NCBI GenBank assembly: GCA_018815925.1 | Contig: JAHIWS010000006.1 | Coordinates: 14,286-78,285 of the forward strand | Reading direction: 5' to 3' | Origin: Nanobdellota archaeon | GTDB taxonomy: Archaea > Nanobdellota > Nanobdellia > Pacearchaeales > GW2011-AR1 | DNA: 64,000 nt | Shown here: positions 1-59,636 of the stretch, one piece after another | How the letters are laid out: each line of letters starts with the position of its first letter | Position numbering within the stretch: position 1 is the first letter of the stretch | Notes under the pieces: model-generated | The model's input: the letters and a program-made list of their open reading frames with translations, nothing else | Database searches by the model: none | Told to the model about the DNA's origin: nothing | Position numbers and translations under genes: made by a program

Positions 1-550
1 TATTTTCAGAAGCCATGATAATCTCTTCTGCAAGACTTTGAGTTATTGTTTTCTTTTTATTAAAAGCTTTGTCAGAAGCTCCATGAACAATATGTTTTAA
101 TGCTAAACCAATTCTTCTTAATGGGGAAACATCAACTGCTTGAGGATATCTTGCCCCTCCATATTCAATAACAGTTATTTCATCTCTGGGAGCAGAATTT
201 TCAATTGCTGTAACTAAAACTTGAATAGGGTTTTTCCCTGTTTTTTTCTCTATCATTCTAAATGCTTCCAAAACAATTTTCATATTTTTAGTATATTTTC
301 CAGTAGATTTTCCAAGAATGATTCTGTGTTTTTTACCTCTGTGTCCTGCAACAGAAAGTTTATTCATAAGCCTTTCAACAATATTTACTTTAGTCTGCCC
401 AAATTTTTGAACATTTCTTCCATAACTTTTTAGGATAAGTTTAGGTTCTAAATTTATAGATGCTTTTAAACCAGGATCTTTTACTTCAACTTCTGAAATA
501 TCATAAACATCAAATATTTTGAAGTTAGGAAGCATAGTTGTTTCACTCAT
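1..550 (-). CDS. rps7: 30S ribosomal protein S7 (uS7); C-terminus runs off the window edge
   Basis: Own translation of the minus strand from ATG at 550: MSETTMLPNFKIFDVYDISEVEVKDPGLKA...HRGKKHRIILGKSTGKY...EYGGARYPQAVDVSPLRRIGLALKHIVHGA, typical archaeal uS7. Missing from the ORF track because it has no stop inside the window. Lies downstream of uS12, as in the str operon. Confidence 0.9.
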   Translation of the reverse strand, partial: MSETTMLPNFKIFDVYDISEVEVKDPGLKASINLEPKLILKSYGRNVQKFGQTKVNIVERLMNKLSVAGHRGKKHRIILGKSTGKYTKNMKIVLEAFRMIEKKTGKNPIQVLVTAIENSAPRDEITVIEYGGARYPQAVDVSPLRRIGLALKHIVHGASDKAFNKKKTITQSLAEEIIMASEN

Positions 551-738
551 TTTTTCTTTTTTCCTTGAATATAGAATCTATTATTATTATTCATTTTAAC
601 CACATTTAAATTATAATTAATGTATTCTTTTTTATCTGGACATCTTTTCATAATTCCTTTTTCCATAGGAATAATAATTTCATCTGCTTCACTAAGAGTT
701 GAATTATTTATTGATAATATTTTTATTATTTTAGCCAT
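547..738 (-). CDS. hypothetical small protein (63 aa) wedged between uS12 and uS7
   Basis: ORF track 547..765; internal ATG at 738 gives MAKIIKILSINN.... Its TGA stop overlaps the uS7 ATG (ATGA overlap at 547-550), which suggests translational coupling. No recognisable family. Confidence 0.35.
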   Translation of the reverse strand: MAKIIKILSINNSTLSEADEIIIPMEKGIMKRCPDKKEYINYNLNVVKMNNNNRFYIQGKKKK

Positions 739-1070: not shown

Positions 1071-1493
1071 TTATCTCCTACCTTTTTCAATCTTACCACT
1101 AACTAATCTAGCTAGAGGTTGATCATTTACTTGAATAACTTGAAATCTAACTCCAGGAATATCTCCTTTAGATCTTCCTTGTTTTCCACCTATTCTTTCA
1201 ATCATAACTTCGTCGTGCTCATCAATAAATTTTTGAGCTAAATTTCCAGGAATAAATGCAGTTACTTGTTTGCTGTTTTTTTTAAGCTGGACTCTGCAAC
1301 ATTTTCTCATAGCAGAGTTTGGTTGTTTAGCTTCTTTTTGAACTTTTTGTAACACAATTCCCTTTGCCTGATTAGCTCCTTCTAAAGGATCTGATTTAGC
1401 ATAAAGATTTAGGGTTTTCACTTTATAATGTCTATCTTTCCATCTAAATTTTTTCCTATTCTTCTTTAATTTTGTTGCACTTTTTAATCCCAT
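1071..1493 (-). CDS. rps12: 30S ribosomal protein S12 (uS12)
   Basis: [41 protein letters not shown]...[21 protein letters not shown] is the conserved archaeal uS12 core. Confidence 0.95.
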
Positions 1494-7779: not shown

Positions 7780-8385
7780 TTATTTTCGACCCCCTTTCAT
7801 TTTTATTATTTTTTTAACTATGAAAAGAATTATTAATCCAACTAAAATTCCTCCTAGGACCCAGATCCAAATAGATGATTGGTTCATTACTTCAGGTATT
7901 ATAATTTTTGTAAATTCCTGTGCATCATTTGAAGCAACACTAATTGCAGGAAGTGCTTCAGTACTTGTTCCAATAAGTTGTTTAGTGGCTTCTTGACTTG
8001 CTAAATAAAACTTTCTTACCATTAAACCTCCAATACCAGATAAAAGTGCTACTGGAAGAAGATTTGTGATACTATTTATTATTCTTAATTTAGGCGAAAT
8101 AATTATTGATTTGTTTGAGACTTTATACATTGGAATTTTCTTTCCTTTTTTACTCCAAAAAAAGTTTTTAGTTTTTTCAATTAAATTTGATTTGAGGAGT
8201 TTTTTAAGATTATATTCTACTGTGTTTAAAGGAATTTTTAAAGAATCAGCAATATCTTTTTCACTAGCTTCTTTAGTTTCAGAAAGAAAATCTAGTATTT
8301 TTTTACATTTCTTGTTTCCTAAGACTGTTGATAAATTCCTAATATTTTCATCATCCATTGAAAACATAACATACTTTTTTGCCAT
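7780..8385 (-). CDS. membrane-anchored ArsR-like HTH protein
   Basis: N-terminal winged-helix-like segment (KKILDFLSETKEASEKDIADSLKIPLNTVEYNLKKL) and C-terminal TM helices. Confidence 0.5.
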   Translation of the reverse strand: MAKKYVMFSMDDENIRNLSTVLGNKKCKKILDFLSETKEASEKDIADSLKIPLNTVEYNLKKLLKSNLIEKTKNFFWSKKGKKIPMYKVSNKSIIISPKLRIINSITNLLPVALLSGIGGLMVRKFYLASQEATKQLIGTSTEALPAISVASNDAQEFTKIIIPEVMNQSSIWIWVLGGILVGLIILFIVKKIIKMKGGRK

Positions 8386-11797: not shown

Positions 11798-12619
11798 TCA
11801 CTTAAAACTTTTACTTATTGATTCTTTCCAAAAACTTGGCAAAGGATTTGAGACAAATCCTCTAAAATTTCCAGAATAAAGATATGTAAGGCCTTTATCT
11901 TCTTTGTATTTTTCAAATTTATCTTGTGTTTTAGAATATATTTTTTGTATTATTTTTCTCTCAAATTCTTTTTGAAGTAAAGAAGAGGTTTTTAGAGCTA
12001 AGAAATCAGCTTGTCTTAAAATATTTACTTCTAGATTAGAAGAATTTTGAGAAATAAAAAGAATGTTAATGTTTTTATGTCTAGCTATTAATATTAACTT
12101 GCTTAAAAGCTTGTTTGCACTGCTCATTGAGCTCCTTGAACTAAATAAAATTCCCCCCTCATCTATTAAGACCCAGGAATCATTTTCTAATTCTGAGATA
12201 TCTGAAACAACTTTTATCCAAGAAGGAAATTCATTTGGATTAAATCCTATTGCAAAACATTTTTCTTTATGTTTAGAATAAATATTTTCAAGTAATTTAA
12301 CTCCAAATGCTGTTTTTCCAGAACCTCTTGCACCAATTATAATTCCAATCTGGCTATCTGACTCTATTGTTTTATTAAACCAATTTTTATAATCTCCTTC
12401 AAGAGTTTCAATAATCTTAAAGCAGACATATTTACCTCTGATTGACTCTCTTTTCTTTTTTATTTTATCTTCTTTAGATTTTTTAGACATTTTTTCACTT
12501 ATTGTAATGATTCCCTTAACAAAATAATAAGGTATTTTAATTATGAATAGCAAGCCTTTTCCAAGATATTTCCAGAAATTAGATTTGTTTTTTATTTTAG
12601 ATTTTCTCTTTTTTGTCAT
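11798..12619 (-). CDS. membrane-anchored P-loop NTPase (Zot/AAA-like)
   Basis: Basic N-terminus and one TM helix, Walker A GARGSGKT, Walker B WVLIDEGG, then ILFISQNSS. Confidence 0.55.
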   Translation of the reverse strand: MTKKRKSKIKNKSNFWKYLGKGLLFIIKIPYYFVKGIITISEKMSKKSKEDKIKKKRESIRGKYVCFKIIETLEGDYKNWFNKTIESDSQIGIIIGARGSGKTAFGVKLLENIYSKHKEKCFAIGFNPNEFPSWIKVVSDISELENDSWVLIDEGGILFSSRSSMSSANKLLSKLILIARHKNINILFISQNSSNLEVNILRQADFLALKTSSLLQKEFERKIIQKIYSKTQDKFEKYKEDKGLTYLYSGNFRGFVSNPLPSFWKESISKSFK

Positions 12620-12785
12620 GGTTGGAATAAGAAAATAAGGATAATAAATGTATCTGTATTTAAGGAAAAGATGTTGGGCATATTGTAATAGTTAATAATC
12701 GTGTCTTAAAATGTCTAAGTTTATCTCAATAACACAAAATATAAAAATAAAAAAATCTTAAAAAGAATAAGAAAAGGAGGTCAAA

Positions 12786-13010
12786 ATGAAAAAGAAATCT
12801 AAAAAAGAAGAATTATCTAGCCCACATTTAAAAACTTTACAAAAAGATTTTGAAAAACTTCAAAAAGCAGGAAAGTATTTGGAAAGTGAAAGGAAAAAAT
12901 TAAAAAAAGAAAAAGAAAAAATTAGAAAAAAATTAAAAAAAGAAAAACAAATACTAAAATTAAGAAAACAAATTGATAGATTACAAAAAAGACCCAAAAA
13001 TAATTCTTAA
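12786..13010 (+). CDS. hypothetical lysine-rich coiled-coil protein (74 aa)
   Basis: ORF preceded by a strong GGAGG Shine-Dalgarno-like motif (aaaaggaggtcaaaATG). Low-complexity K/E sequence. Confidence 0.35.
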   Translation: MKKKSKKEELSSPHLKTLQKDFEKLQKAGKYLESERKKLKKEKEKIRKKLKKEKQILKLRKQIDRLQKRPKNNS

Positions 13011-13098
13011 TCTTACTTTTCGTGCAACGCCAAACCTTGTCACCTTTGGAAAATAGTTCTAAATGTTTAAATACTAAATAAGGCAAGATTTCTAATCC

Positions 13099-13148
13099 AT
13101 ACAAATTATGGGTATAAGGAGGTACATGACATACAATATATTGTATGT
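13099..13148. promoter_or_regulatory. tandem NrdR-box operator: imperfect box about 13099-13114, perfect palindrome 13129-13148
   Basis: ACATACAATATATTGTATGT (13129-13148) is a perfect 20-bp palindrome. Its 16-bp core ATACAATATATTGTAT fits the published NrdR box consensus acaCwAtATaTwGtgt. A weaker copy, ATACAAATTATGGGTA, is centred about 32 bp upstream, which matches the canonical tandem-box spacing. It sits immediately upstream of nrdR-nrdJ. Confidence 0.6.
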
Positions 13149-16780: not shown

Positions 16781-16828
16781 CTTTTCCAACACAATTATAT
16801 TTATAAAAAAATTATAATTCTATTGAAA

Positions 16829-18499
16829 ATGGTAAAATTAGTTAATCCAAAAGTAAAAATTCTTGATTATGGTCCTAAAATCATGAGTAAAAATGGAAAA
16901 GTAATTCTTACCCCTGATGAACTTGTTTATGGAGGAGCTATAGCAACTTATCAAGATGTTGATTCTATGCAAGAATTATTAAATAAAAAGAAAGAATATT
17001 TTCAATTAAAAAAAAGATTAGATAATACAACAGATTTTGCTAAAAAACAAAATCTTGAAGCAAAAATAGAAGATTTAGATTATAGTCCAAAAAAAATTAA
17101 AAATAAAATTTTAGGTATTTGTGCAAGAGGTCATGCTTCTATGGCTACAACTCCTGTTGTCTGGTTTGATATTATGAATTCTTCAAAATTAATTGACTCT
17201 ATTTTTACTGGAGCAAGATTTGGAAGTTTTTTAATGCCTTCAAGTAGAAGAGTTCCAATAACAAAAGAAAATATTGTTATACCAAGAGGAGTTAAGGAAA
17301 AAGGTAGGAGAGCTGAAAAAATATATGTTGAATCAGCTGAAAATAATGTTGAAACCTATGAAAAAGTTCAGAACAATAATGTTGAAACCCAAGATGCAAG
17401 CAAAATAGTTCATTATGGCCATGCTGGAGGCGGAAGATTACAAATGCCTTTAGACACAATTATTTATTTTAAAAATTTGATGGATAATGATTTTGATAAT
17501 GCTATTCCTAGAGAAGGCAAAGAAATCATATCACAATTAGATTCTTGGATTAGGGATGGTAGTGGAATGGAAAATATTTATGTGGGAAAATTAAGAGCTC
17601 CTAGAACAAGTTGTGTTAATCCGAATATTTTTACATTTAGAAGAAACAGAGCCGAAAAATTAAAAGAAAAACTTGGAATAGGAATAGAACCTATGATATT
17701 AAATAAAAATATTGAAAAAGATAATGAAACTATTTATAGGATGCAACAGTGGTTAGATTATAGAAAGGAAATTTTTTCTGATTCAGATAGACTCAAAAAT
17801 GAAGGAAAAAAATTATTAGACAAATTAGATGAGATTATTGTGGATAATAATGGATTGATTAATTTTGAAATGGGTGTTAAAATTCCTTGGAGAGTTTGGG
17901 GTGAAGTAAAAAGACACAGGACAATGCCTCAAACAACAGAATCAGTTTATAATGCAATGGACAAAACTTTAGAAGTTGTGCACAATTTTGAGTTACATAA
18001 GAGAAATGTAGATGTAGAAGTAATACTTGATGCTTATCTTCCAATAATTGATATCCCTATCCCTGTTCAAAGAAATGAAGATAATCTTGAGTTATGGATT
18101 AATGCTTGGGATAAATCTGCTTTAGCTTATCAAAAACTTGTTGAGATGGGTGTTGAAAAAAGTGATGCAATTATGATAGTTCCAAGAGCACTTTTACTTG
18201 CAAATATTAAAACCTATGATTTGTACAACGCTACAACAGGATATGGGTCTTTAAGAAAATGTAGCTCAGTAGAGAATAAAATGAAAGAAATAACAAGAAA
18301 AGAATTGGAATTAATAAAGGAAAGTGTTGATTATAAAATTGGTTGCTTATTAGAACCTAAATGTGAGTATATTGGTTATTGTCCTGAAATAAATACTTGC
18401 GGGAATATTACTCAAAAATTTCTTCCTTCATATACAAAAGAGTTTCATAAAAATTTTAATAAAAAAAGGATTAAAAAGATTAGAGAAGAGTTAAAGTAG
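16829..18499 (+). CDS. thyX: ThyX-like flavin-dependent thymidylate synthase, double-length form
   Basis: RGHASMATTPVVWFDIMNSSKLIDSIFTGARFGSFLMPSSRRV resembles the ThyX core with a degenerate signature. A second repeat, FEMGVKIPWRVWGEVKRHRTMPQTTES, carries RHR. Located between dut and thioredoxin. The ORF track starts at a TTG at 16823; ATG at 16829 is preferred. Confidence 0.55.
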   Translation: MVKLVNPKVKILDYGPKIMSKNGKVILTPDELVYGGAIATYQDVDSMQELLNKKKEYFQLKKRLDNTTDFAKKQNLEAKIEDLDYSPKKIKNKILGICARGHASMATTPVVWFDIMNSSKLIDSIFTGARFGSFLMPSSRRVPITKENIVIPRGVKEKGRRAEKIYVESAENNVETYEKVQNNNVETQDASKIVHYGHAGGGRLQMPLDTIIYFKNLMDNDFDNAIPREGKEIISQLDSWIRDGSGMENIYVGKLRAPRTSCVNPNIFTFRRNRAEKLKEKLGIGIEPMILNKNIEKDNETIYRMQQWLDYRKEIFSDSDRLKNEGKKLLDKLDEIIVDNNGLINFEMGVKIPWRVWGEVKRHRTMPQTTESVYNAMDKTLEVVHNFELHKRNVDVEVILDAYLPIIDIPIPVQRNEDNLELWINAWDKSALAYQKLVEMGVEKSDAIMIVPRALLLANIKTYDLYNATTGYGSLRKCSSVENKMKEITRKELELIKESVDYKIGCLLEPKCEYIGYCPEINTCGNITQKFLPSYTKEFHKNFNKKRIKKIREELK

Positions 18500-18993: not shown

Positions 18994-19113
18994 GGCTCCG
19001 TAGCTCAGCCTGGCAGAGCACTGGACTTTTAAGCTGAAACATGTTTCGCTTCCTTAGCGAATTTGATTCACAAAGGAATCCAGGTGTCGAGGGTTCAAAT
19101 CCCTTCGGGGCCA
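18994..19113 (+). tRNA. tRNA-Lys (anticodon UUU) with 46-nt intron (19032-19077)
   Basis: Acceptor GGCTCCG/CGGGGCC, D arm GCTC-AGCCTGGCA-GAGC, anticodon stem CTGGA/TCCAG with loop CTTTTA|intron|A, T arm GAGGG-TTCAAAT-CCCTT, discriminator A. The intron is at the canonical 37/38 position. Confidence 0.85.
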
Positions 19114-19539: not shown

Positions 19540-19619
19540 CCAAATTTTACTTTCTTTTATTATTGCAAAGTTATTAAAATTTTCACTTGGTTGATACTCT
19601 GCAAAACCCTATTACAAAA

Positions 19620-19829
19620 ATGCCACATATTCTGCAACCAAAACATGTCAAGCTTAATGAAAAAGATGCTGAGAAATTGCTACAAGGATTAAATATTTCT
19701 AAAGCCCAATTACCCAAAATTCTTTCTACAGACACTGTGCTTCCAGAAGGATGTCAGGTAGGGGATATAATTAAAATAGAAAGAAAAGATAGAGACAAGG
19801 TTTATATTTATTATAGGGTGGTAGTGTAA
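19620..19829 (+). CDS. rpoH: DNA-directed RNA polymerase subunit Rpo5 (RpoH)
   Basis: MPHILQPKHVKLNEKDAEKLLQGLNISKAQLPKI...GDIIKIERKD...YYRVVV matches the RpoH pattern (HxLVPKH ... QLPxI ... GDVVxIxR ... YRxV). The ORF track's TTG start at 19587 is unlikely. Confidence 0.85.
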   Translation: MPHILQPKHVKLNEKDAEKLLQGLNISKAQLPKILSTDTVLPEGCQVGDIIKIERKDRDKVYIYYRVVV

Positions 19830-19830
19830 A

Positions 19831-22800
19831 ATGGTTAAAGATTCACAACACATCGTGGTTAAAAAATACTTGAAAGATCATTCGCTAGTTGAATCTAACA
19901 TAACATCTTTTAATAATTTTATTGAAAAAAGAATGCAGGAAATTGTGGATGAAGTTTCTGAAACAATAAATCCAGAGGATTTTGAAATTAGGTTAGGGAA
20001 AATAAAAGTAGGGAAACCAAAAATAGTAGAATCAGATGGAAGTTCTTCTTTAATTATGCCTTATGAAGCTAGATTGAGAAATCTTACTTATGCTGCCCCT
20101 ATTACCTTGGAAATCACAGTAAAAAAAGATAATCAAATTGATTCTGAAATAGTTGAAATAGGAAGAATTCCAATTATGGTAAAAAGTAAAGTGTGTAATA
20201 CTTTTGGAATGGATTCTGAGGAGTTAATAAAAAGTTATTCTGATCCATTAGATCCAGGTGGATATTTTATCATTAAAGGAAATGAAAGAGTCATGGTTCT
20301 TGCAGAAGATTTAGCAGAAAATCAGCCTTTTATTGAAACAGATAAAAAAGATGGGTTGACCTTAAGAGTTTTTTCTTCAAAAGGAACTTATAGAATACCT
20401 TCTTTAATTTCTGAAAATAAAGAAGGAATTTTTGATGTTTCATTTAGTAAATTCAAAAATCTTCCAGCAATAGTTGTTTTAAAAGCATTAGGTTTGACAA
20501 AAGAATCAGATATTTCAAAATACATTGGGAAAGAAACAGATAGTTTGATTGTTAATCTTTACGAATATGTAAGTTTAGCAAGTAGAGATGATGCAATAAT
20601 GTATATTGCTGAAAAAGCCAATTTACAAGGAACAAAAAAAGAAATTGTTGATAGGGTGCAGCAAAGATTAGATTCATATCTTTTTCCACACATAGGTCAA
20701 AAAAAAGAAGATAGAATAAAAAAAGCAGTAACTTTGTGTAAATTAATAAAACAATATATGATTGCAAAAGAAAATCCAAAATTAAGAACAGACAAAGATC
20801 ATTATGCAAACAAAAGAGTTAGACTTTCTGGAGATTTATTATCTACTTTATTCAGAGTTAATCTTGGAATTTTAATAAGAGATATTCAATATTCTTTGCA
20901 AAAATCATCTAAGAGAAAAAAGTTTTTCTCCATAAAAATAATTGCAAAATCTACTTTATTTTCCCATAGGGTTGAATCTGCAATTGCTACCGGAGCTTGG
21001 ACAGGAGAAAGAAGTGGTATTACTCAAAACATGGATAAAACAAATTATTTGGCAACAATTTCTCAACTACAAAGAGTTTCAAGTATGTTACCTAGTGATC
21101 AAGAAAATTTTATGGCAAGAATACTTCACCCAACCCATTATGGAAGGTTCTGTCCTATTGAAACTCCTGAGGGAACAGAAATAGGTCTAAGAAAGAATTT
21201 AGCAATTTTAAGTAGGGTTTCAACAAGAGTGGATTTAGATGAAAATCAATTTTTAAAGGATTTAGAATCTCAAGGATTAAGTAAAGAAGGCTTAGGAAAT
21301 ATAGACATTTTCTTTAATGGAAAATTTATAGGGAGTACAGATAAACCTGAAGAGTTTGTATCTAAAATACGTGAAAAAAGAAGAGATAATGAACTTCCAA
21401 TGCAACTTAATATCAAACATGATTTTCTCTACCAAATAATTGTTATTTCAACTGAACCTGGAAGAGTTTTAAGACCCTTGATAATTGTTGAGAATGGGAA
21501 CCCAAAATTAAAAAATGAACATCTTATTCAATTAGAACAAAATGAAATAAAATGGGGCGATCTTATCTCAAAAGGAATAATTGAATATCTTGATGCATCT
21601 GAAGAAGAAAGTTCATTAGTAGCTTTGTATGAGGAGGAATTAACTCCTGAACACACTCATCTAGAAATAGATAGTTTAGATTTATTTGGGGTTGTAACCA
21701 GTCTTGTTCCTTATGGAAATCATGATCAAAGTTCTAGACTTAATAGAGGAAGTAAAACTCAAAAACAGGCTCTTGGTATTTATGCTGCAAATTATCTTTG
21801 TAGGTTAGATACAGATGTCAGTGTTTTGCAATATCCCCAAAAACCAATTGTAAAAAGTTTTGTATATGATACTCTTAATACTTATCCTGCAGGTCAAAAT
21901 CTAGTTGTGGCCATTATGACTTATGAGGGATATAATATGCAGGACGCACTGGTATTCAATAAAGGGAGTTTAGATAGAGGAGTAGGAAGAAGTTTTTACT
22001 TTAGACCATATTCAGCAATAGAAATGAATTATGCTGGAGGTTTAAAAGATGAAATTGTTATACCTGATAAAGATGCATCAGGTTATAAAACAGAAGAAGA
22101 TTATAGATATTTAGAAAAAGATGGTGTTGTTTATCCTGAAGCAAATGTTGGAGAAGGAGAAGTTTTAATTGGAAAGATTTCACCTCCAAAATTCCTTTCA
22201 GAAGCCCGTGAAATTTCTGTAAGAGCAAAAAAAGAATCAAGTATAACTATGAGACAAGAAGAAAAAGGAATTGTTGATACTGTGTTCATAACAGAAGATG
22301 ATGAAGCAAACAAAGTTGTACAGGTTAAAACACGTGACCAACGTATTCCAGAATTAGGAGATAAATTTGCTACAGCTCATGGACAAAAAGGAGTTATTGG
22401 TATGATTGTTGATGAAAATGATATACCTTTTACTTCAAGAGGAATTAGGCCAGATGTAATTTTTAATCCACATGGTTTACCAAGTAGAATGACTGTTGGT
22501 TATTTACTAGAATTATTAGCAGGTAAAATAGGTTGTTTAAGAGGCAAAGTTGTTGATGGAACTTGTTTTTCAGGGGAAAGTAAAGAAAAACTAGAAGATC
22601 AACTAAAAAATTTAGGATTTAGATATGATGGAAAAGAAACAATGTATAGTGGAGTTACTGGAAAAAAATTTGTTTCAAAAATATTTATTGGTAATCTTTA
22701 TTATTTAAAACTAAAATATATGGTGGCTAATAAATTACATGGAAGAGCTTCAGGAAAAATTGCACTTTTAACAAGACAACCTGTGGAAGGTAGATCTAGG

Positions 22801-23088
22801 GGAGGGGCATTAAGGTTAGGAGAAATGGAACAGCAGGTTTTAGTTGCTCATGGTGCATCATTATTGTTAAAAGAAAGATATGATTCAGATAAAGTTACAA
22901 TTCCTATTTGTACAAAATGTGGTGCTATAGCTATTGATGATAGTGTAAGAAGTAAAATTTCATGTCCTATTTGTAATAGTGAAGATGTTGAATTTGTTGA
23001 GATATCATATGCATTTAAACTTCTTTTAGAAGAACTTCAAGGATTACATATACACACCAATTTTAAATTAAAAAACAAATACGAATAA
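19831..23088 (+). CDS. rpoB: DNA-directed RNA polymerase subunit Rpo2 (RpoB), unsplit
   Basis: 1085 aa. GYFIIKGNERV, HPTHYGRFCPIETPEGTEIGL, GDKFATAHGQKGV, LRLGEMEQQVLVAHGA, C-terminal zinc ribbon CTKCG...CPICN. Confidence 0.97.
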   Translation: MVKDSQHIVVKKYLKDHSLVESNITSFNNFIEKRMQEIVDEVSETINPEDFEIRLGKIKVGKPKIVESDGSSSLIMPYEARLRNLTYAAPITLEITVKKDNQIDSEIVEIGRIPIMVKSKVCNTFGMDSEELIKSYSDPLDPGGYFIIKGNERVMVLAEDLAENQPFIETDKKDGLTLRVFSSKGTYRIPSLISENKEGIFDVSFSKFKNLPAIVVLKALGLTKESDISKYIGKETDSLIVNLYEYVSLASRDDAIMYIAEKANLQGTKKEIVDRVQQRLDSYLFPHIGQKKEDRIKKAVTLCKLIKQYMIAKENPKLRTDKDHYANKRVRLSGDLLSTLFRVNLGILIRDIQYSLQKSSKRKKFFSIKIIAKSTLFSHRVESAIATGAWTGERSGITQNMDKTNYLATISQLQRVSSMLPSDQENFMARILHPTHYGRFCPIETPEGTEIGLRKNLAILSRVSTRVDLDENQFLKDLESQGLSKEGLGNIDIFFNGKFIGSTDKPEEFVSKIREKRRDNELPMQLNIKHDFLYQIIVISTEPGRVLRPLIIVENGNPKLKNEHLIQLEQNEIKWGDLISKGIIEYLDASEEESSLVALYEEELTPEHTHLEIDSLDLFGVVTSLVPYGNHDQSSRLNRGSKTQKQALGIYAANYLCRLDTDVSVLQYPQKPIVKSFVYDTLNTYPAGQNLVVAIMTYEGYNMQDALVFNKGSLDRGVGRSFYFRPYSAIEMNYAGGLKDEIVIPDKDASGYKTEEDYRYLEKDGVVYPEANVGEGEVLIGKISPPKFLSEAREISVRAKKESSITMRQEEKGIVDTVFITEDDEANKVVQVKTRDQRIPELGDKFATAHGQKGVIGMIVDENDIPFTSRGIRPDVIFNPHGLPSRMTVGYLLELLAGKIGCLRGKVVDGTCFSGESKEKLEDQLKNLGFRYDGKETMYSGVTGKKFVSKIFIGNLYYLKLKYMVANKLHGRASGKIALLTRQPVEGRSRGGALRLGEMEQQVLVAHGASLLLKERYDSDKVTIPICTKCGAIAIDDSVRSKISCPICNSEDVEFVEISYAFKLLLEELQGLHIHTNFKLKNKYE

Positions 23089-23090
23089 AA

Positions 23091-23384
23091 ATGATTCCAG
23101 AACATAATTTTGAGAGAATGAAAAAATATAAAATTACTGTACCAACAGGATCAGGGAAAAAAGAGATAGTTAGAGCAAGATATAAGGGATTAATAGAGGG
23201 AACCCATGTATTTGAAAATGAAGCTAGTTATGTAGTAGCTGAAGATGATCAAATAGTTGTTGGAGGAGATATTATTAATCAAAAATTACACTTATCTTCT
23301 ATAGGTATCGGAAGAATTAATAAAAGTTTATTAGGCCTCACTAGAAAAATAAATAAATTAGAACAAACAAACAATAAAAAATGA
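23091..23384 (+). CDS. hypothetical protein (97 aa) between rpoB and rpoA
   Basis: Starts 2 nt after the rpoB stop. 4-nt overlap with the next ORF. No recognisable family. Confidence 0.45.
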   Translation: MIPEHNFERMKKYKITVPTGSGKKEIVRARYKGLIEGTHVFENEASYVVAEDDQIVVGGDIINQKLHLSSIGIGRINKSLLGLTRKINKLEQTNNKK

Positions 23385-23608
23385 ACCAAAAAAATAACCG
23401 TGAAAGAAAAATGATTAAATTGTTTAATTCTATAAAATTAGTAGATAGGTGGGACAATCTTTGTAGATATATTCAAAATCCATTAAATTCACAAGATGAT
23501 GAATGTGGAGATTGCAGTGCTTTAGAAATTGATGCTAAAAATAAATGCCCAATTTATAAAATGAACATACAAAAAGAATATAGATTAAATCAAAATTTAT
23601 CAGAATAA
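23381..23608 (+). CDS. hypothetical Cys-containing protein (65-75 aa) between rpoB and rpoA
   Basis: ATGA overlap with the previous ORF. Ends 7 nt before rpoA. Cys residues at NLCRY, ECGDCS and KCPIY. Confidence 0.4.
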   Translation: MNQKNNRERKMIKLFNSIKLVDRWDNLCRYIQNPLNSQDDECGDCSALEIDAKNKCPIYKMNIQKEYRLNQNLSE

Positions 23609-23615
23609 AACTAAA

Positions 23616-26600
23616 ATGCAAAAAATAATCAGAAAAAAAATAGGAGAAATTAGATTTAGTTTACTTAGTCCAGAAAAAATTAAAAAATTATCAGCAGCAA
23701 AAATTGTAACACCTGAACTTTATGATATAGATGGTTATCCTGTTGATGGGGGTTTAATGGATCTTAGGCTAGGGGCAATTGATCCTGGAGTAAGATGTAG
23801 GACTTGTGGTGGAAGACTTAAAGAATGTTTAGGGCATTCTGGAAGTATTGATCTTGCCAGACCAGTAATTCATTTAAAATACATACCTTTAATTGAACTT
23901 GGATTAAGGTGTTTTTGTCATTCATGTAAAAAATTAATGATAGCAGATAAAGATTTAGAAAAATATTCTGCAAGTCAAAGAGCTAAGAAATCAAAAGATG
24001 CTAAAAAATGTCCTCACTGTCAATCAGCTCAAGATAAAATTAAATTAGATAAACCAACAAATTTCCTTAGGGGAAAAACAAGATTATTTCCTACAGAAAT
24101 AAGAGAAATACTAAGTAATGTTCCTGATTCTGAATTAAGAAAAATAGCAATTGACCCAACAACTTCAAGACCAGAGTGGGCTATATTAACAACTCTTTTA
24201 GTACCTCCTGTAACAGTAAGACCAAGTATTATTCTTGAATCTGGTGAAAGAAGTGAAGATGATCTTACACATAAACTTTCTGATATTATCAGGGCAAATC
24301 AAAGACTTTGGGAAAACCTAAATGCAGGAGCTCCAGAAGTTATTATTGAGGATCTTTGGGATTTATTACAATTTCACATCACAACTTTTTTTGATAATAC
24401 AGTGGCTAGAATTCCCCCTGCAAGACATAGAAGCGGACAACCACTTAAAACAATAACAGAAAGAATCAAGGGTAAGGAAGGAAGAATAAGAAAAAATCTT
24501 GCTGGTAAAAGAGTTAATTTTTCTGGAAGAACAGTTATTTCACCTGATCCTTCAATAGAAATAAATGAAGTGGGTATTCCATATGAAATTGCTAAAGTTG
24601 TCACTGTTGCTGAAACAGTAAATGATTTAAATATTGAAAAATTAAAAAAATTGATTCAAAAAGCAGAAGTTTATCCTGGAGCAAATTATATTATTAGACC
24701 TGATGGCAAAAGAAAAAAAATAACTGCTGACTTAAAAGAAGAAATAGTTGCTGAAATATCACCTGGTTATAAGGTAGAAAGACATCTTCAAGATGGAGAT
24801 ATTGTATTGTTCAATAGACATCCAAGTCTGCACAGGGGTAGTCTCATGAGTCATTATGTAAAAGTTCTTCCAGGTAGAACATTTAGATTACATCCTGCTG
24901 TAGCTTTTCCCTATAATGCTGATTTTGATGGAGATGAAATGAATATTCATTCCCCTCAAACAGAAGAAGCAAGATCAGAAGCAAAAGTACTTCTTGATGT
25001 TAAACAAAATTTAATTTCACCAAAAAATAGCACCAATTTTATAGGGTGTGTGGATGATTCAATAACAGGAAATTATTTGATTGGAATGGACACTTTTTCA
25101 AAAGAAGATGCAAATCAAATTCTTTATAAATCAGGAATAAAATCCCAAATTTCAAAGAAGACCATTTCAGGATTAGAATTATTCTCAAAAGTTCTTCCTA
25201 AAATTAATTTTTCAAGTGATTCTATTAATATCAAAGAAGGAGAAATAATTAAAGGAGTACTTGATAAAACAGTTTTTGGTGATGAAGGAGGAGATTTAAT
25301 TAAGGAATTAGATAAAAGTGTTGGAAGATTAGAGGCTTTTGATACAATAAAAAGAGCATTTAACATGGGAAAAAATTATTTAACAGATAGAGGTATAACA
25401 ATATCAGTTGAAGATCTTGATTTAGACAAATCAGTTGTTGAAAAAGCAAAAGAAATCATTGAGAAAGCAGAACAAAGGACTAAAGAAGTGATTGTTTCCT
25501 ACGATGAGAGAACTCTTGAAATTATTCCTGGGAAGACAAAAGAAGAATCAAGAGAATTAAAAATACTTAAAATTTTAAACGAAGTAAGAACAAAAATAGG
25601 GGAGATTGTTAAAAAAGAGTTTTCTGCAGAGAATCCTGTTTCACATATGATTAAGTCTGGGGGGGGAGGGAATATTTTGAATATAACTCAGATGGCTTGC
25701 TGTGTTGGACAGCAAGATTTAGAAGGTAAAAGAATTGATTTAGGCTATAATGATAGAACACTTTCATTTTTTAAGAAAGGAGATTTATCACCAAAATCAA
25801 GAGGGTTCATAAATAGTCCTTTTATAAAAGGATTAAGACCAGATGAATTCTTTTTTGGAGCTATTACTGGTAGGGCTACACTTATGGATACTGGATTAAG
25901 AACTCCAAAATCAGGATATTTATATAGAAGATTAGCAAATGCATTACAAGATCTTAAAAAAGAGTATGATGGAACAGTAAGAGATAGCAACAACAATATA
26001 ATCCAATTTGAATATGGAGAAGATGGTTTAGATGTTTCACAACTTCACCTGAAAAAGGAGCTTGATCCTGGAGAAGCTATTGGAATCATTACTGCCCAAT
26101 CATTTGGAGAGCCTTCAACACAAATGGTTTTGAGAACTTTTCATTTTGCAGGTGTTTCTGAAATGCAAGTTACCCAAGGTCTTCCAAGACTTATAGAAAT
26201 TTTTGATGCTAGAAAAAAACCTTCATCCCCAAAAATGGAAATTTATTTGAATAAAGATAATAATAATGAAAATTCAGCAAGAGTATTTGCTGAAAAAATA
26301 AAAGAGGTTTCAATAAGAGAAATCTCTTCAGAAATTAATTTGAATTTTAGTGATAAAAAAATAGAAATCAAAATTGACAAAGAAGGGTTAAAACAAATTC
26401 ATACTTCAGTAGCAAAAGTTGTGGAAAGACTTAAAGATTTAAAATTTAAGGCTAAAGAGACTGGAGATTCAATAATTCTAAGTGCTAGTGATTTAAATTT
26501 CAAAGAAATTTATAAACTTAAAGAAAAATTAAAGAACACAGTAATATCAGGAGTTAAAGGAGTAAAACAAGTTTTAGTTGTAAAAAGGGGAAAGGATTTT

Positions 26601-27104
26601 ATTGTAACAACCCTTGGGACTAATTTAAAAGACATATTAGAATTAAAAGAAGTTAGTAGGGATAATATTATTTCAAATGATTTGCATGAGGTGGAAAAAG
26701 TTTTTGGAATTGAAGTAGCAAGACAATTAATAATAAATGAAATATATGAGGTTATTAATGTTCAGGGATTAGATATCGATAAAAGACATCTTAAATTAGT
26801 AGCAGATGCTATGACAAATACAGGTAATGTGAAAGGAGTTACAAGAATAGGAATAATTGCTCAAAAATCATCTATTTTAGCAAGAGCTACTTTTGAAACC
26901 CCAGTAAAACAATTTGTTAATGCTACAATAAAAGGTTCTGGAGATAAATTATCTAGTGTTATTGAAAATATAATTCTTAATCAACCGATTCCTGTTGGAA
27001 CAGGATTACCTGGATTATTGGTTAAGGTTATAGGCCCTCTAACTAAAAAAGAAGAAGAAAAGAAAACAGCAAAGAAAAAAATTGTTGAACAAACTAATAG
27101 ATGA
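23616..27104 (+). CDS. rpoA: DNA-directed RNA polymerase subunit Rpo1 (RpoA), A' and A'' parts fused in one ORF
   Basis: 1162 aa continuous. Zinc site CRTCGG...CLGHSG, catalytic YNADFDGDEMNIH, and in the same frame the A''-type trigger-loop region GEAIGIITAQSFGEPSTQMVLRTFHFAGV. Confidence 0.95.
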   Translation: MQKIIRKKIGEIRFSLLSPEKIKKLSAAKIVTPELYDIDGYPVDGGLMDLRLGAIDPGVRCRTCGGRLKECLGHSGSIDLARPVIHLKYIPLIELGLRCFCHSCKKLMIADKDLEKYSASQRAKKSKDAKKCPHCQSAQDKIKLDKPTNFLRGKTRLFPTEIREILSNVPDSELRKIAIDPTTSRPEWAILTTLLVPPVTVRPSIILESGERSEDDLTHKLSDIIRANQRLWENLNAGAPEVIIEDLWDLLQFHITTFFDNTVARIPPARHRSGQPLKTITERIKGKEGRIRKNLAGKRVNFSGRTVISPDPSIEINEVGIPYEIAKVVTVAETVNDLNIEKLKKLIQKAEVYPGANYIIRPDGKRKKITADLKEEIVAEISPGYKVERHLQDGDIVLFNRHPSLHRGSLMSHYVKVLPGRTFRLHPAVAFPYNADFDGDEMNIHSPQTEEARSEAKVLLDVKQNLISPKNSTNFIGCVDDSITGNYLIGMDTFSKEDANQILYKSGIKSQISKKTISGLELFSKVLPKINFSSDSINIKEGEIIKGVLDKTVFGDEGGDLIKELDKSVGRLEAFDTIKRAFNMGKNYLTDRGITISVEDLDLDKSVVEKAKEIIEKAEQRTKEVIVSYDERTLEIIPGKTKEESRELKILKILNEVRTKIGEIVKKEFSAENPVSHMIKSGGGGNILNITQMACCVGQQDLEGKRIDLGYNDRTLSFFKKGDLSPKSRGFINSPFIKGLRPDEFFFGAITGRATLMDTGLRTPKSGYLYRRLANALQDLKKEYDGTVRDSNNNIIQFEYGEDGLDVSQLHLKKELDPGEAIGIITAQSFGEPSTQMVLRTFHFAGVSEMQVTQGLPRLIEIFDARKKPSSPKMEIYLNKDNNNENSARVFAEKIKEVSIREISSEINLNFSDKKIEIKIDKEGLKQIHTSVAKVVERLKDLKFKAKETGDSIILSASDLNFKEIYKLKEKLKNTVISGVKGVKQVLVVKRGKDFIVTTLGTNLKDILELKEVSRDNIISNDLHEVEKVFGIEVARQLIINEIYEVINVQGLDIDKRHLKLVADAMTNTGNVKGVTRIGIIAQKSSILARATFETPVKQFVNATIKGSGDKLSSVIENIILNQPIPVGTGLPGLLVKVIGPLTKKEEEKKTAKKKIVEQTNR

Positions 27105-27155: not shown

Positions 27156-27572
27156 ATGGTAAATGTAATAGATATGAGGGATCTTAGATATCTTAATTTA
27201 TTTGGAAACATTACTAAAATAGATACAAAATTTTGTTTCAGATATAATGAAGTATTAATATTTTGTATCCCAAAACAACTTATTAGAAGAGCTGTTGGAG
27301 AAAATGGAAGAAATGTAAAAAAACTTAGTGAAATTTTAAGGAAAAAAATAAAAATAATTCCCATACCCCAAAACCCAGAACACATAAGGCCATTTATTGA
27401 ATCTGTTGTTAGTCCTGTAAAATTTAAAGATTTGGAAGTTAAAGATAATGAAGTAATTTTAACTGCAGGAAGTAATAGTAAAGCAGCACTTATTGGAAGA
27501 AATAAGCGTAGATTTTTTGAAATGCAGGAAATTATAAAAGATTTTTTTAAAAAAGATTTTAAGATTATTTAA
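27156..27572 (+). CDS. nusA: archaeal NusA-like transcription termination factor (two KH domains)
   Basis: 138 aa. RRAVGENGRNVKKLSEIL and AALIGRNKRRFFEMQEI are the GxxG-type KH motifs. Conserved position after rpoA. Confidence 0.8.
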   Translation: MVNVIDMRDLRYLNLFGNITKIDTKFCFRYNEVLIFCIPKQLIRRAVGENGRNVKKLSEILRKKIKIIPIPQNPEHIRPFIESVVSPVKFKDLEVKDNEVILTAGSNSKAALIGRNKRRFFEMQEIIKDFFKKDFKII

Positions 27573-27579
27573 AACTAAA

Positions 27580-28143
27580 ATGGATTTAGAAAAACAAACT
27601 AAAAAAATAATCCTAAATTCAGTTAGATCAAAAGATATTGAAGGAGCCATGGATTATTTAGTTAAGACTTACAAACACAAGGCAGGATGTTTAGCTTATA
27701 GGTTTGTAGGTAATTATGAAACTGCTAGAGAGGTTATTCAAGAATCTTTTATAGAGCTTTTTAAAAATCTTCATAAGTTTAATCCCACCCATAATTTTTA
27801 TACGTGGTTCTATACAATAATAAAAAATAAATCAATTAATTATCTTAGATATAAAAATAGACAAATTTATCAAACTAGACTAGATTACAATTCTTTTAAA
27901 ATACCAGATCCTAACTTAAATCCAGAGGAACTTTTTGTTGAAAAACAAAAACAAGAATTATTAAAAAAAACAATAGATACTCTTCCTGAAAAATATAAAA
28001 CAATATTAATCTCCTCTTTAGAAAATTCTAGTTTAAGAAAAGTATCAGAAACACTTAGCATTCCCAGAGCGACAGTAACGTGGAGGTTTAATAAAGCAAA
28101 AGAAAAATTAAAACCTCTTTTAGCAAATCTTGTTTATTCGTAA
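27580..28143 (+). CDS. ECF-type sigma-70 family protein (regions 2 and 4)
   Basis: Region 2: AYRFVGNYETAREVIQESFIELFKNLHKFNPTHNFYTWFYTIIKNKSINYLRYKNR. Region 4: IDTLPEKYKTILISSLENSSLRKVSETLSIPRATVTWRFNKAKEKLKPLL. Size (187 aa) and motif spacing are typical of ECF sigma factors. Starts 7 nt after the nusA stop. Confidence 0.8.
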   Translation: MDLEKQTKKIILNSVRSKDIEGAMDYLVKTYKHKAGCLAYRFVGNYETAREVIQESFIELFKNLHKFNPTHNFYTWFYTIIKNKSINYLRYKNRQIYQTRLDYNSFKIPDPNLNPEELFVEKQKQELLKKTIDTLPEKYKTILISSLENSSLRKVSETLSIPRATVTWRFNKAKEKLKPLLANLVYS

Positions 28144-28174
28144 CATTTAAAAGCATATATTTCATTTTTTCACT

Positions 28175-30243: not shown

Positions 30244-30501
30244 ATGAAGGGCAAAGTTATTCAATTCAGACGAGGAAGACATACTATTAAAGAAAAACAT
30301 TTTTTAATAGAAATTGAAGCATGTAAAACTCGCAAAGATGCTGAAAAATTTGTTGGAAAAGATGTAGAATGGAAATCTCCAGCAGGAAAAATTATCCAAG
30401 GAAAAATATCCGGGGCTCATGGAAATAAAGGTGTTGTAAGGGCTATTTTTGAAAAAGGCTTACCAGGTCAAGCAATCACAACAAATGCGGAAATAAAATG
30501 A
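30244..30501 (+). CDS. rpl35ae: 50S ribosomal protein L35Ae (eL33)
   Basis: MKGKVIQFRRGRHT...FVGKDVEWKSPAGKIIQGKISGAHGNKGVVRAIFEKGLPGQA. Confidence 0.85.
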   Translation: MKGKVIQFRRGRHTIKEKHFLIEIEACKTRKDAEKFVGKDVEWKSPAGKIIQGKISGAHGNKGVVRAIFEKGLPGQAITTNAEIK

Positions 30502-31078: not shown

Positions 31079-31627
31079 ATGGCATCATTAAGAAAAGCAA
31101 ATGCATATTCAAAAAAGAAAGTTGTTCCTTATACTAGGATTAGTAAGAAAAAAAACAAATCATTTATAAAAACAGTTCCTCAACAAAAAATTGTTAAATT
31201 TAGTATGGGAAAAGAAGATTTATTTACTAATGGAAAACTACCTTATAATTTGACTTTAATATCAACTGAAAAAGTTCAGTTAAGACATAATGCTCTTGAA
31301 GCATGTAGGCAGTATATTAATAAAAAACTAGATAAAGAGTTATCAGGACAATATTTGTTTAGAGTTATCCCCTTTCCACATCATATTCAAAGAGAAAACA
31401 AGATGCTTACTGGTGCAGGTGCTGATAGAATGCAGACAGGAATGCAATTAGCTTTTGGAAAAGCAATGGGAAAAGCTGCAATTTTAAAATCAGAAAGTAA
31501 AATATTCTTTGTTGCTGTTCCAAATCCAAAAGCAGTCTCATTTGCAAGAAAAACTTTAAAACAGATAAAATCAAAACTTCCTTGCAAAACAAAGGTAATA
31601 TACGAAGATAAGAGTAAAAAAAAGTGA
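31079..31627 (+). CDS. rpl10e: 50S ribosomal protein L10e (uL16)
   Basis: RVIPFPHHIQRENKMLTGAGADRMQTGMQLAFGKAMGKAA is the conserved L10e core. Confidence 0.92.
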   Translation: MASLRKANAYSKKKVVPYTRISKKKNKSFIKTVPQQKIVKFSMGKEDLFTNGKLPYNLTLISTEKVQLRHNALEACRQYINKKLDKELSGQYLFRVIPFPHHIQRENKMLTGAGADRMQTGMQLAFGKAMGKAAILKSESKIFFVAVPNPKAVSFARKTLKQIKSKLPCKTKVIYEDKSKKK

Positions 31628-32311: not shown

Positions 32312-33175
32312 TCACTCCCCAATAAGTTCTTTGACTAATTGAGCCATTACACTTAAAAATTCTTCAGCTCTATCTTGCCAAACGTCTATTTCAACACCTT
32401 TTAAATTTTTTATTTCACCATGGGATATTTTTTTGTGAAGCATTAAAAGATCTCTATACCACACAATATATTTACCTTTTAATTTACCTTGGTTAACAAA
32501 AACTTCTTTAAGGTCAGCAGCAACATGTTCTGGTGAAGCAGGAGGTATGTTTGCTGCTATTAAAGCAGCATGAGCAGAATCAACCATACTCCAATATAAT
32601 CCTTCAATAGAATTTAGTTCTGCTATCTTGCTTCTTACAATGTGCATTGGGGCTCTTTGAAGTGCACTATAAATTGCTTCCGGAGTTGATTTTATTTTTC
32701 CATTAATTAATAAATATTTTAAAGGTTCAAAAAAACCAGCTAAATCAATCATTGCCTCCCCATACCTTAAAATATTTAAGACAACAGGATCTCCCCTGAT
32801 TAAGTCTTCCCACCAGCTACTAAGTTTTATTGTGTTAATATGAAGGCTTTTTTTGTAGGGTGTTGATCTTAAAATCTTATCAAGTTCTTCCCTATACCAA
32901 GCAATTAATTCTTGATCCCATTTAATTGTAACATCATCCAGAATAATCACAACATCAATATCAGAACTAGAAGTTGTTTCTGATTTTACTACAGAACCAA
33001 AAAGCACAACTGATTTAATTATTTTGTTAAATTTTTTATAAGTTTTTGTAGCAAAATCCATTGCAATATCATGGTCTGTTTTAAGTTGTAAACTAGGATA
33101 TTTTTCTAAATCTTCTTTAGATGTTTTTTTAGTTTTTTTTACAACATTCTTTTTAGAAATTTTTTTCTTAGACAT
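32312..33175 (-). CDS. nucleotidyltransferase-domain protein with helical (HEPN/KNTase_C-like) C-terminal domain
   Basis: LFGSVVKSETTSSSDIDVVIILDD NTase motif. Paralog of 28175-29755. Confidence 0.6.
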   Translation of the reverse strand: MSKKKISKKNVVKKTKKTSKEDLEKYPSLQLKTDHDIAMDFATKTYKKFNKIIKSVVLFGSVVKSETTSSSDIDVVIILDDVTIKWDQELIAWYREELDKILRSTPYKKSLHINTIKLSSWWEDLIRGDPVVLNILRYGEAMIDLAGFFEPLKYLLINGKIKSTPEAIYSALQRAPMHIVRSKIAELNSIEGLYWSMVDSAHAALIAANIPPASPEHVAADLKEVFVNQGKLKGKYIVWYRDLLMLHKKISHGEIKNLKGVEIDVWQDRAEEFLSVMAQLVKELIGE

Positions 33176-49918: not shown

Positions 49919-49990
49919 GGTCCATTAGTCCAACGGCTAAGACACCTCGTTTACACCGAGGAAACCCAGGTCCGACTCCTGGATGGACCA
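49919..49990 (+). tRNA. tRNA-Val (anticodon UAC)
   Basis: Acceptor GGTCCAT/ATGGACC, anticodon stem CCTCG/CGAGG with loop TTTACAC, T arm CCAGG-TCCGACT-CCTGG, discriminator A. Confidence 0.85.
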
Positions 49991-50029: not shown

Positions 50030-50200
50030 GCGTGGATGGTTTAGTGGTAGAACATAACGTTGCCAATGATGGAAACCAATGTTTCCCTTCACAACCCTTC
50101 CTTTTTAGTACAGAAAGGTACTTCCTTTCTCTTCCTCTAATAGGAAGTAAGAAGAAAAAGCAAAAACGTTAGGATCCGGGTCCGATTCCCGGTCCGCGCA
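50030..50200 (+). tRNA. tRNA-Gly (anticodon GCC) with about 100-nt intron (50066-50165)
   Basis: Acceptor GCGTGGA/TCCGCGC, D arm GTTT-AGTGGTA-GAAC, anticodon stem TAACG/CGTTA with loop TTGCCA|intron|A, T arm CCGGG-TCCGATT-CCCGG, discriminator A. Confidence 0.8.
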
Positions 50201-59472: not shown

Positions 59473-59636
59473 CCCTTCGTAGCTTAGTGGTTAAAGCGCC
59501 TGGCTGTAGAATAGGGTGGATATTCCGCTATCATATTTGTGGAAATTAAATGAAACCTGATTAGTCAGCTCCTGTTGACTGCCTATTAAAATATGCAGTG
59601 CCCGGGAGATCCCCAGTTCGAATCTGGGCGAAGGGA
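59473..59636 (+). tRNA. tRNA-Tyr (anticodon GUA) with about 91-nt intron (59510-59600)
   Basis: Acceptor CCCTTCG/CGAAGGG (the archaeal C1-G72 identity pair), D arm GCTT-AGTGGTTA-AAGC, anticodon stem CCTGG/CCGGG with loop CTGTAG|intron, T arm CCCAG-TTCGAAT-CTGGG, discriminator A. Confidence 0.8.

Follow-up and report, generated by a model that had tools for sequence, protein, structure and literature searches.

The best-described relatives of the gene considered here are the bacterial group IV, or extracytoplasmic function (ECF), sigma factors, such as SigW (PDB entry 5wuq) and sigmaE/RpoE (1or7, 6jbq and 4lup). The gene is an open reading frame (ORF) located directly behind nusA in 64,000 nt of archaeal DNA (assembly GCA_018815925.1, contig JAHIWS010000006.1); this whole stretch is referred to as the window, and all coordinates are positions in it (Table 1). 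Like the bacterial proteins, the predicted product is built as sigma2, linker and sigma4, in 187 aa, and aligns with them end to end at ~27-28% identity. It also has a recognizable region 2.2 (EVIQESF), regions 2.3/2.4 (FYTWFYTIIKNKSINYLR) and a region 4.2 helix-turn-helix. Unlike them, it is encoded by an archaeon, and the sole polymerase in the window, as well as the only one reported for the DPANN archaea, is archaeal. Moreover, the related archaeal loci have a TATA box upstream and lack the co-transcribed anti-sigma gene, and the sigma4 of the window protein is unusually divergent, with the usual GTVKSR replaced by ATVTWR and no equivalog cut-off reached.

Sigma-70 family genes have been described before in DPANN genomes by Castelle et al. 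2021 (PMC8204110), as family fam00359, most prevalent in Woesearchaeota. In the parts of that account drawn on here, mis-binning is ruled out, no anti-sigma factors are found and the mechanism is left open. The window gene and the organism that carries it are both of this type; the genomic context described below is absent from those parts. The preliminary description of this DNA had assumed an archaeal sigma to be novel, and that stands in part: the gene is a native ECF sigma in an archaeon, but such genes are already on record for Woesearchaeota (PMC8204110, as far as those parts go). What appears to be new is the home of the gene in a variable slot, its extreme divergence relative to its neighbors, and an operon position that is private and incidental. 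The paper that re-classified the ECF family does not mention archaea.

TFB and TFE, the expected initiation factors of the window archaeon, are functional analogues of sigma, and the path of the TFB reader and linker is analogous to that of the sigma linker (PMC7289017). They have no sequence or fold relationship to the window ORF.

The window encodes an ECF-type sigma factor

The match of the sigma ORF to the ECF family is far beyond chance. NCBIfam TIGR02937 (sigma70-ECF) covers residues 23-178 with 95.8 bits, against a cut-off of 42.9, and Pfam Sigma70_r2 (PF04542) reaches 57.2 bits against 24; Sigma70_r4_2 (PF08281), taken alone, is borderline and falls just under its own cut-off (22.5 vs 25.7 bits). 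The profile check suggested in the preliminary description thus came out in favor of a sigma factor, and the two ECF hallmark segments that it had quoted from the 187-aa ORF are present, at residues 47-90 and 135-177. None of the NCBIfam equivalog cut-offs was reached, the best being SigW PRK09641 (103 vs 209 bits), and TIGR02985, at 96 bits, also stayed under its cut-off of 126. A sequence search of the PDB produced end-to-end alignments with Bacillus subtilis SigW (5wuq, E=2e-19) and Escherichia coli sigmaE (1or7/6jbq).

The predicted fold agrees with the family assignment. An AlphaFold2 (AF2) model, made with 120 homologues in the alignment, has a mean predicted local distance difference test score (pLDDT) of 92.5 and consists of two helical bundles, residues 3-100 and 115-185, the second being a four-helix sigma4, with a low-confidence linker of ~14 residues between them. 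ECF sigmas account for all of the top Foldseek matches of this model in the PDB. The sigma2 part superimposes on region 2 of E. coli sigmaE bound to -10 DNA (4lup) at 1.5 A over 90 residues (TM 0.88, Foldseek), and residues 115-185 align to the sigma4 of SigW and sigmaE. Regions 1.1 and 3 are absent from the model, and at 187 aa the protein has the minimal two-domain architecture of the ECF group, whose members measure ~180-220 aa.

NCBI names the identical protein 'sigma-70 family RNA polymerase sigma factor [Nanoarchaeota archaeon]'. Close relatives were not found: a word-indexed homolog search with the single sigma protein returned only the query, and in an exhaustive phmmer search of 1.84 billion cluster representatives the query was the only close sequence, with the others forming a flat tail at 33-37% identity. 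Context look-ups within this tail yielded the bacterial genes P0002, P0003 and P0010 and one archaeal positional orthologue, P0004; the bacterial top matches have an overlapping downstream gene of ~168 aa. The 64-kb window contains no sigma paralogue. PADLOC gave nothing for the sigma, and the only PHROGs match was to a generic viral sigma family.

The sigma gene is native to an archaeal genome

The window genome is archaeal and belongs to a Pacearchaeota/Woesearchaeota-like DPANN lineage. The window has 28% GC throughout and tRNAs with long introns, and the closest RNA polymerase loci come from Pacearchaeota/Woesearchaeota metagenome-assembled genomes (MAGs). We read eight contigs carrying the identical sigma protein; three of these places, from samples ERZ27247121 (ENA), SRR6514271 and SRR6514274 (Logan), are shown, and at all three nusA directly precedes the sigma gene. 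The composition of the gene (26.1% GC; 15.4% GC at third codon positions, GC3) had been said to resemble that of its neighbors, and indeed its GC3 lies inside the neighbors' range of 11-18%. Since the junction recurs across samples and GC and GC3 match the neighbors, neither a chimeric join nor a recent transfer is likely; a chimeric assembly at the nusA-sigma join was accordingly dismissed on the basis of the independent assemblies and the composition. The sigma gene is native and long-resident, in a flexible part of the genome.

Two of the related polymerase contigs carry bacterial labels. L011 (JAHIVH010000133.1) is an archaeal rpoA contig in a MAG labelled 'Proteobacteria bacterium', and L017 (DATKUW010000051.1) is a full rpoH-rpoB-rpoA-nusA contig in a MAG labelled 'Bacillota bacterium'. 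Their Rpo1 proteins are 76-78% identical to that of the window, and both contigs are likely mis-binned DPANN.

The recurrent partner of the sigma gene is a slot upstream of a nucleotidyltransferase gene

The genomic feature with which the sigma recurs is a variable slot before the adjoining nucleotidyltransferase gene, not the polymerase genes. In P0004, the best archaeal relative of the window sigma (36% identity), the gene is followed by a 531-aa nucleotidyltransferase, L35Ae and L10e and is preceded by a glycoside hydrolase, not by nusA. A sigma gene is directly upstream of the nucleotidyltransferase in L004/L005. Scanning metagenomes with the 526-aa nucleotidyltransferase of the window gave 80 loci at 67-81% identity, 53 of which were informative (>700 nt upstream). 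An ECF sigma is found directly upstream and on the same strand in 8 of these 53 loci (6 distinct sequences; ~15%), and the nucleotidyltransferase gene occurs without any sigma in ~85% of related loci. All nine slot sigmas are intact ORFs, and each of the nine is matched by both Sigma70_r2 and r4_2. No anti-sigma gene was found beside the sigma; the downstream gene is the nucleotidyltransferase, which has a promoter of its own.

The nucleotidyltransferase is extremely conserved: its mean column identity is 73% across 24 orthologues, and it is 67-83% identical in L004 and the 80 metagenome loci (L086-L165). It reached no NCBIfam equivalog and had no PDB match by sequence or profile; the protein is probably an enzyme essential to the cell, and its gene stands first in an L35Ae-L10e block. 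A 287-aa paralogue is encoded at 32312-33175 (-).

The sigma has diverged far faster than these neighboring genes. Pairs of slot sigmas are 23-36% identical, compared to 59-83% for the adjacent nucleotidyltransferase. Between the window and L004, identity is 36% for the sigma, 83% for the nucleotidyltransferase and 81% for both L35Ae and L10e. One locus, L118, has two different ECF sigmas in tandem before the nucleotidyltransferase (359-892 and 941-1495, both +); the upstream one carries the canonical 'GTVKSRIYRARK' in its sigma4 and matches uncharacterised ECFs best, not the other archaeal slot sigmas.

In a nucleotidyltransferase tree, which is a rough neighbor-joining tree with no support values, one clade holds six of the eight distinct sigma-bearing loci, mixed with relatives that have no sigma. 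This mixture fits inheritance with repeated loss. No sigma remnants were detected in the sigma-less loci of the same clade, and L086, the closest relative of the window in this tree, has neither a sigma nor a remnant.

The slot adjoins a tRNA-Val integration hot spot

A tRNA-Val(TAC) gene, often together with tRNA-Gly, lies just upstream of the slot in most of the 24 loci checked; in the window, tRNA-Val and the slot are apart through rearrangement. In three loci the 3' half of tRNA-Val is repeated upstream of the slot, without mismatch and in direct orientation, over 33 nt in L146, 43 nt in L086 and 23 nt in L130. These half-tRNA duplicates are att-like scars left at a tRNA hot spot by integrative elements. 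The small ORFs between the tRNA-Val repeats include RelE-like and DUF4258/DUF2283-like toxin-antitoxin genes, recognised by eye.

This setting invites comparison with phage sigma factors (PHROG 1740), which match the window sigma at 81 bits and resemble it in being accessory, fast-evolving and the neighbor of a hot spot. However, no viral or integrase genes accompany the archaeal sigma, and in L146 the att-flanked insert does not include the sigma.

The position behind nusA is private to the window's species

The preliminary description had the sigma gene starting 7 nt after nusA, co-directional with rpoH-rpoB-rpoA-nusA, and the coordinates bear this out: the sigma ATG is 7 nt past the nusA stop, the gap has no T-run, and all of the genes are on the + strand. 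It had also argued that this position points to a polymerase-linked function, which the related genomes do not support. We collected 80 species-representative loci (L006-L085) around the Rpo1 C-terminus, at 73-80% identity and with 10-kb flanks, and scanned them in six frames with a hidden Markov model (HMM) made from the 150 best matches of the sigma and with the window's neighboring proteins. The rpoH-rpoB-rpoA-nusA order is kept among these relatives, with nusA, the conserved final gene of the polymerase-linked set, after rpoA in 74 of 80 loci and its C-terminus conserved. In none of the 80 related species did the sigma HMM detect an ECF sigma within 10 kb of the polymerase operon at E<1e-5, and the nusA-sigma synteny is therefore not recurrent. 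The sensitivity of the HMM is adequate, since it finds all of the highly divergent archaeal slot sigmas. The usual successor of nusA is instead the gene for ribosomal protein S12, mostly followed by S7 and EF2, as seen in 54 of the 62 loci with >=1.2 kb past nusA.

The nusA-S12 junction is a hot spot for lineage-specific insertions. In L006-L085 it often holds one or two small ORFs of 70-266 aa, which are unrelated and in some cases membrane-like or secreted-looking. A Pacearchaeota MAG, L026, has an ORF at 12407-13117 (-), 5.7 kb downstream of nusA and on the opposite strand to it, that combines an XRE-type helix-turn-helix (HTH) with a sigma4-like HTH and has no sigma2; it gave the only weak match to the sigma HMM in these loci, at 21 bits, and its domains were judged by eye.

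In the window, the S12 and S7 genes are displaced to 26 kb upstream of the nusA-sigma join, on the opposite strand. Because these usual followers of nusA sit so far off on the minus strand, one inversion can explain how nusA and the sigma became adjacent. Such an inversion would have had its breakpoints at nusA/S12 and just upstream of the sigma, and would imply that the polymerase operon and the sigma block were ancestrally divergent. Two loci fit an ancestral divergent order: L092, in which rpoB(-) and rpoH(-) lie beside sigma(+) and nucleotidyltransferase(+), and L041, in which the L35Ae-L10e block is divergent from rpoH. We are highly confident of the joint statement that the gene is an ECF sigma and that its adjacency to nusA is incidental and private to the window's species.

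Expression signals are archaeal

A TATA-like motif (TTTWAAW/TTTATAW) starts between -36 and -27 in 24 of 60 window ORFs, where 3.0 would be expected, with its mode at -29/-30; this geometry indicates archaeal promoters with short or no leaders. Wherever an intergenic region precedes a slot sigma, it contains a TTTTTAAA-type box ~30 nt before the gene. With TATA-like boxes at about -30, the slot sigmas appear to be set up for archaeal transcription. What these upstream regions contain is thus an archaeal TATA box; no search aimed at ECF-type -35/-10 promoters was made. A generic scan for sigma-70 promoters and intrinsic terminators, a method that is not applicable to archaea, gave background level.

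The element GTAACATTTAAA(A/T)GC precedes the nucleotidyltransferase gene everywhere, and in several lineages the sigma stop codon is inside it or <=9 nt away. As the nucleotidyltransferase promoter and a T6 run come after the sigma, the sigma may be the last cistron of its unit. Its designation as the last gene of the operon is nevertheless only plausible: the T6 run and the conserved promoter of the next gene speak for it, but genes on the same strand continue for another 4 kb. The claim that no TATA box intervenes between nusA and the sigma is true of the 7-nt gap itself, but a TATA-like run at 27542-27554, which is -38 to -26 relative to the sigma, lies inside the 3' end of nusA. This run falls within the conserved NusA C-terminal codons KDFFKK and was not accepted as a private sigma promoter, being encoded by those conserved residues. 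Read-through from nusA is probably the simplest reading of sigma expression.

Polymerase genes and other features of the window

The genes for the two large polymerase subunits, which are split in many archaea, are single ORFs here. Across the clade (L006-L085), Rpo1 is one ORF of ~1160 aa in which A' and A'' are fused, and Rpo2 is likewise unsplit. Pfam, PADLOC and PHROGs gave no match for the two small ORFs between rpoB and rpoA, and none of the 80 related loci holds a homologue; a gap of 150-770 nt separates rpoB from rpoA in many relatives too.

The sigma HMM gave a weak, spurious match to a 201-aa protein encoded at 7780-8385 (-), which was rejected as a sigma: it is a winged-helix protein of the HTH_20/TFE-like type (HTH_20, 36 bits; weak TFIIE_alpha match) and could be a TFE-alpha homologue. 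Rfam tRNA matches of 120-171 nt at 18994-19113, 50030-50200 and 59473-59636 (+), not called by ARAGORN, are presumably intron-containing archaeal tRNAs; one is just upstream of rpoH and one directly follows tRNA-Val. A ThyX-like protein at 16823-18499 (+), encoded in a cluster for nucleotide metabolism that also includes ribonucleotide reductase and dUTPase, is unusually long at 558 aa, with the Thy1 domain confined to residues 346-500.

Table 1. Coordinates of the sigma gene, its neighbors and the tRNA-Val repeats
Feature	Position	Strand	Evidence or remark
ECF-type sigma-70 family gene	27580..28143	+	187 aa, ATG start; TIGR02937, Pfam, PDB alignments, AF2, Foldseek
sigma2	~residues 28-94 (nt 27661-27861)	+	Pfam Sigma70_r2
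Flexible linker	~residues 101-114	+	Low-confidence stretch of AF2 model
sigma4	~residues 126-177 (nt 27955-28110)	+	Pfam Sigma70_r4_2
TFB recognition element (BRE)/TATA element GTAACATTTAAAAGC	28140-28154	+	Includes sigma stop codon; also precedes nucleotidyltransferase orthologues with and without sigma
T6 run	28165-28170	+	Followed by short leader to nucleotidyltransferase ATG (28140..28174 region)
Nucleotidyltransferase-domain protein, 526 aa	28175..29755	+	NTP_transf_2, residues 177-254
L35Ae	30244-30501	+	Downstream of nucleotidyltransferase
L10e/uL16	31079-31627	+	Downstream of nucleotidyltransferase
rpoH	19587-19829	+	80-aa product, Rpb5_C
rpoB, unsplit (Rpo2, 1085 aa)	19831-23088	+	Pfam Rpb2 domains 1-7
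Two small ORFs, 97 and 75 aa, between rpoB and rpoA	23091-23384, 23381-23608	+	Unannotated
rpoA, unsplit (Rpo1, 1162 aa)	23616-27104	+	Pfam Rpb1 domains 1-5
NusA-like KH protein, 138 aa	27156..27572	+	TIGR01952, 56 bits (under cut-off of 74.35); KH_2
Ribosomal protein S12	1071-1493	-	phmmer with relatives' S12, 261 bits
Ribosomal protein S7 (runs off window)	2-577	-	phmmer with relatives' S7, 288 bits
tRNA-Val(TAC)	49919..49990	+	ARAGORN
tRNA-Val and 3'-half duplicate in locus L146	81-151, 1365-1397		Sequence repeat
tRNA-Val and 3'-half duplicate in locus L086	2624-2696, 2766-2808		Sequence repeat
tRNA-Val and 3'-half duplicate in locus L130	4201-4274, 4364-4386		Sequence repeat

Proposed function of the sigma

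We propose that the sigma serves as an accessory regulator of transcription, retaining the sigma2/sigma4 mechanism and applying it to the archaeal polymerase. The region 2.2 helix would dock on the clamp coiled-coil of Rpo1, regions 2.3/2.4 and the sigma4 helix-turn-helix would read DNA, and initiation would be modulated or redirected at a small, lineage-specific set of genes. Docking on Rpo1 is favored because the archaeal polymerase is the only one expected in the cell. In bacteria, the beta-prime clamp helices are the docking site of region 2.2, and this element is structurally conserved in archaeal Rpo1. Among the nine slot sigmas, W76 and L135 are present in 9/9, F73 and N83 in 8/9, and Q54, the equivalent of sigma70 Q406 in region 2.2, in 6/9. 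The survival of both domains, and for the most part of these near-invariant positions, in nine copies that are otherwise saturated favors a sigma-like mechanism, as does the better conservation of sigma2 than of sigma4 in window-type orthologues. By analogy with the bacterial factors, docking on the Rpo1 clamp with DNA read-out by sigma4 would be the likeliest mechanism, a choice that we make tentatively.

TFE and Spt4/5 bind the Rpo1 clamp coiled-coil, which corresponds to the beta-prime docking site of sigma (PMC7289017). A more specific proposal is that region 2 would dock on the clamp in competition with TFE and Spt4/5 and, with sigma4, steer the polymerase to lineage-specific promoters; in this detailed form, we regard the idea as unlikely. 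As to the locus, the usual home of the sigma is the variable slot between the tRNA-Val hot spot and the nucleotidyltransferase promoter, filled in ~15% of lineages, and an inversion in the window's species would have brought the end of the polymerase operon up against that slot, so that the sigma is now probably read through. The combined explanation, a native ECF sigma in a variable slot, incidentally behind nusA and acting as a polymerase-docking regulator, is the one to which we lean, with modest confidence.

Several observations weigh against this combined explanation. To our knowledge, no sigma has been shown by experiment or co-fold to bind an archaeal polymerase. The conserved residues of region 2.2 also serve the fold of the domain, which makes their retention weak evidence for docking. 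The sigma4 domains of window-type orthologues score 29-63 bits, compared to a bacterial ECF median of ~75-79, with r4_2 below its cut-off in the window protein, and these low scores could mean relaxed constraint. The patchy presence and very fast divergence of the gene also fit a dispensable, decaying gene. Indeed, what speaks most against a strongly selected role is the erosion of sigma4 together with the patchy distribution. The slot sigmas show no more similarity among themselves than to bacterial ECFs, and all-against-all BLAST did not resolve them as one group; the case for their orthology and common descent is therefore made from position and the 3' junction that they share. When the nine archaeal slot sigmas were combined into a profile, it drew mainly apparent bacterial ECFs (one named match, Oscillospiraceae), and the attempt to define an archaeal sigma clade in this way was dropped because these dominated the returns. 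Finally, the inversion is deduced from gene order only, and an un-inverted close relative was not recovered.

Other accounts of the gene share much of this evidence. The sigma may be a stand-alone DNA-binding regulator that has no polymerase contact, its sigma4 HTH binding operators near TATA/BRE elements and repressing or activating from there, with sigma2 perhaps serving as a dimerisation or sensor module. Archaea largely regulate their TBP/TFB/TFE machinery with bacterial-type HTH factors, and the strong drift of sigma4 from the bacterial consensus looks as if flap-tip and -35 constraints had given way to new targets. The XRE-HTH protein of L026, with a sigma4-like part and no sigma2 (by eye; 21-bit match), also points this way, as does the missing anti-sigma neighbor; none is reported in the parts of Castelle et al. 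2021 (PMC8204110) drawn on here either. What a pure HTH regulator would not need, however, is the better-kept sigma2, with its W76/F73/N83/Q54 signature of core docking and -10 capture, and ECF sigmas that are not bound to core are in general poor DNA binders. We consider a stand-alone regulator rather unlikely. Less probable still is that the gene is a dispensable passenger, an old bacterial gene from the integration hot spot that is under weak or no selection, is lost lineage by lineage and has no role in transcription. Its presence in only 8/53 related loci, the lack of a sigma or remnant in the closest relative, L086, the 23-36% identity against 59-83% for the adjacent gene, the att-like repeats and toxin-antitoxin cargo next to the slot, and the failure of 1.84 billion cluster representatives to yield any close sequence but itself would all be expected of such a passenger. 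Against it stand 9/9 copies with intact ORFs and both domains recognizable, in which no frameshifts or stops were seen, together with the high AF2 confidence, the fully ameliorated composition and the archaeal promoters in front of the sigmas. The gene has moreover been kept in reduced genomes of ~1 Mb, and in one lineage there is a tandem duplicate.

The same rapid evolution, typical of host-interaction genes, has yet another possible source: an arms race, if the archaeon were a symbiont that delivers the sigma into a bacterial host to reprogram its transcription. An effector of this kind would explain why the canonical bacterial ECF architecture is kept in an archaeon without a bacterial polymerase, and DPANN are predicted symbionts in the parts of Castelle et al. 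2021 (PMC8204110) used here. Yet neither a signal peptide nor a secretion-associated neighbor is evident in the sequence or the locus, and a delivery mechanism for a cytoplasmic 21-kDa protein is not known. Moreover, the known hosts of DPANN are archaea. The effector idea is entirely speculative and, in our view, very improbable.

Implications

Sigma on the one side and TBP/TFB/TFE on the other are textbook markers of bacterial versus archaeal/eukaryotic initiation. An archaeon with a reduced genome that keeps an intact sigma poses the question whether the two initiation systems can mix, which has already been raised for DPANN. The position of the window sigma in the polymerase operon is a misleading clue in this regard and is not evidence for a polymerase-linked function. 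What the slot provides is a defined set of positional orthologues for work on Rpo1-clamp binding and DNA motifs. If the more specific proposal of competition with TFE and Spt4/5 is true, the co-opted sigma would show a bacterial initiation factor in use with a eukaryote-like polymerase, and its rapid divergence would mirror the shifting target specificity of an accessory regulon.

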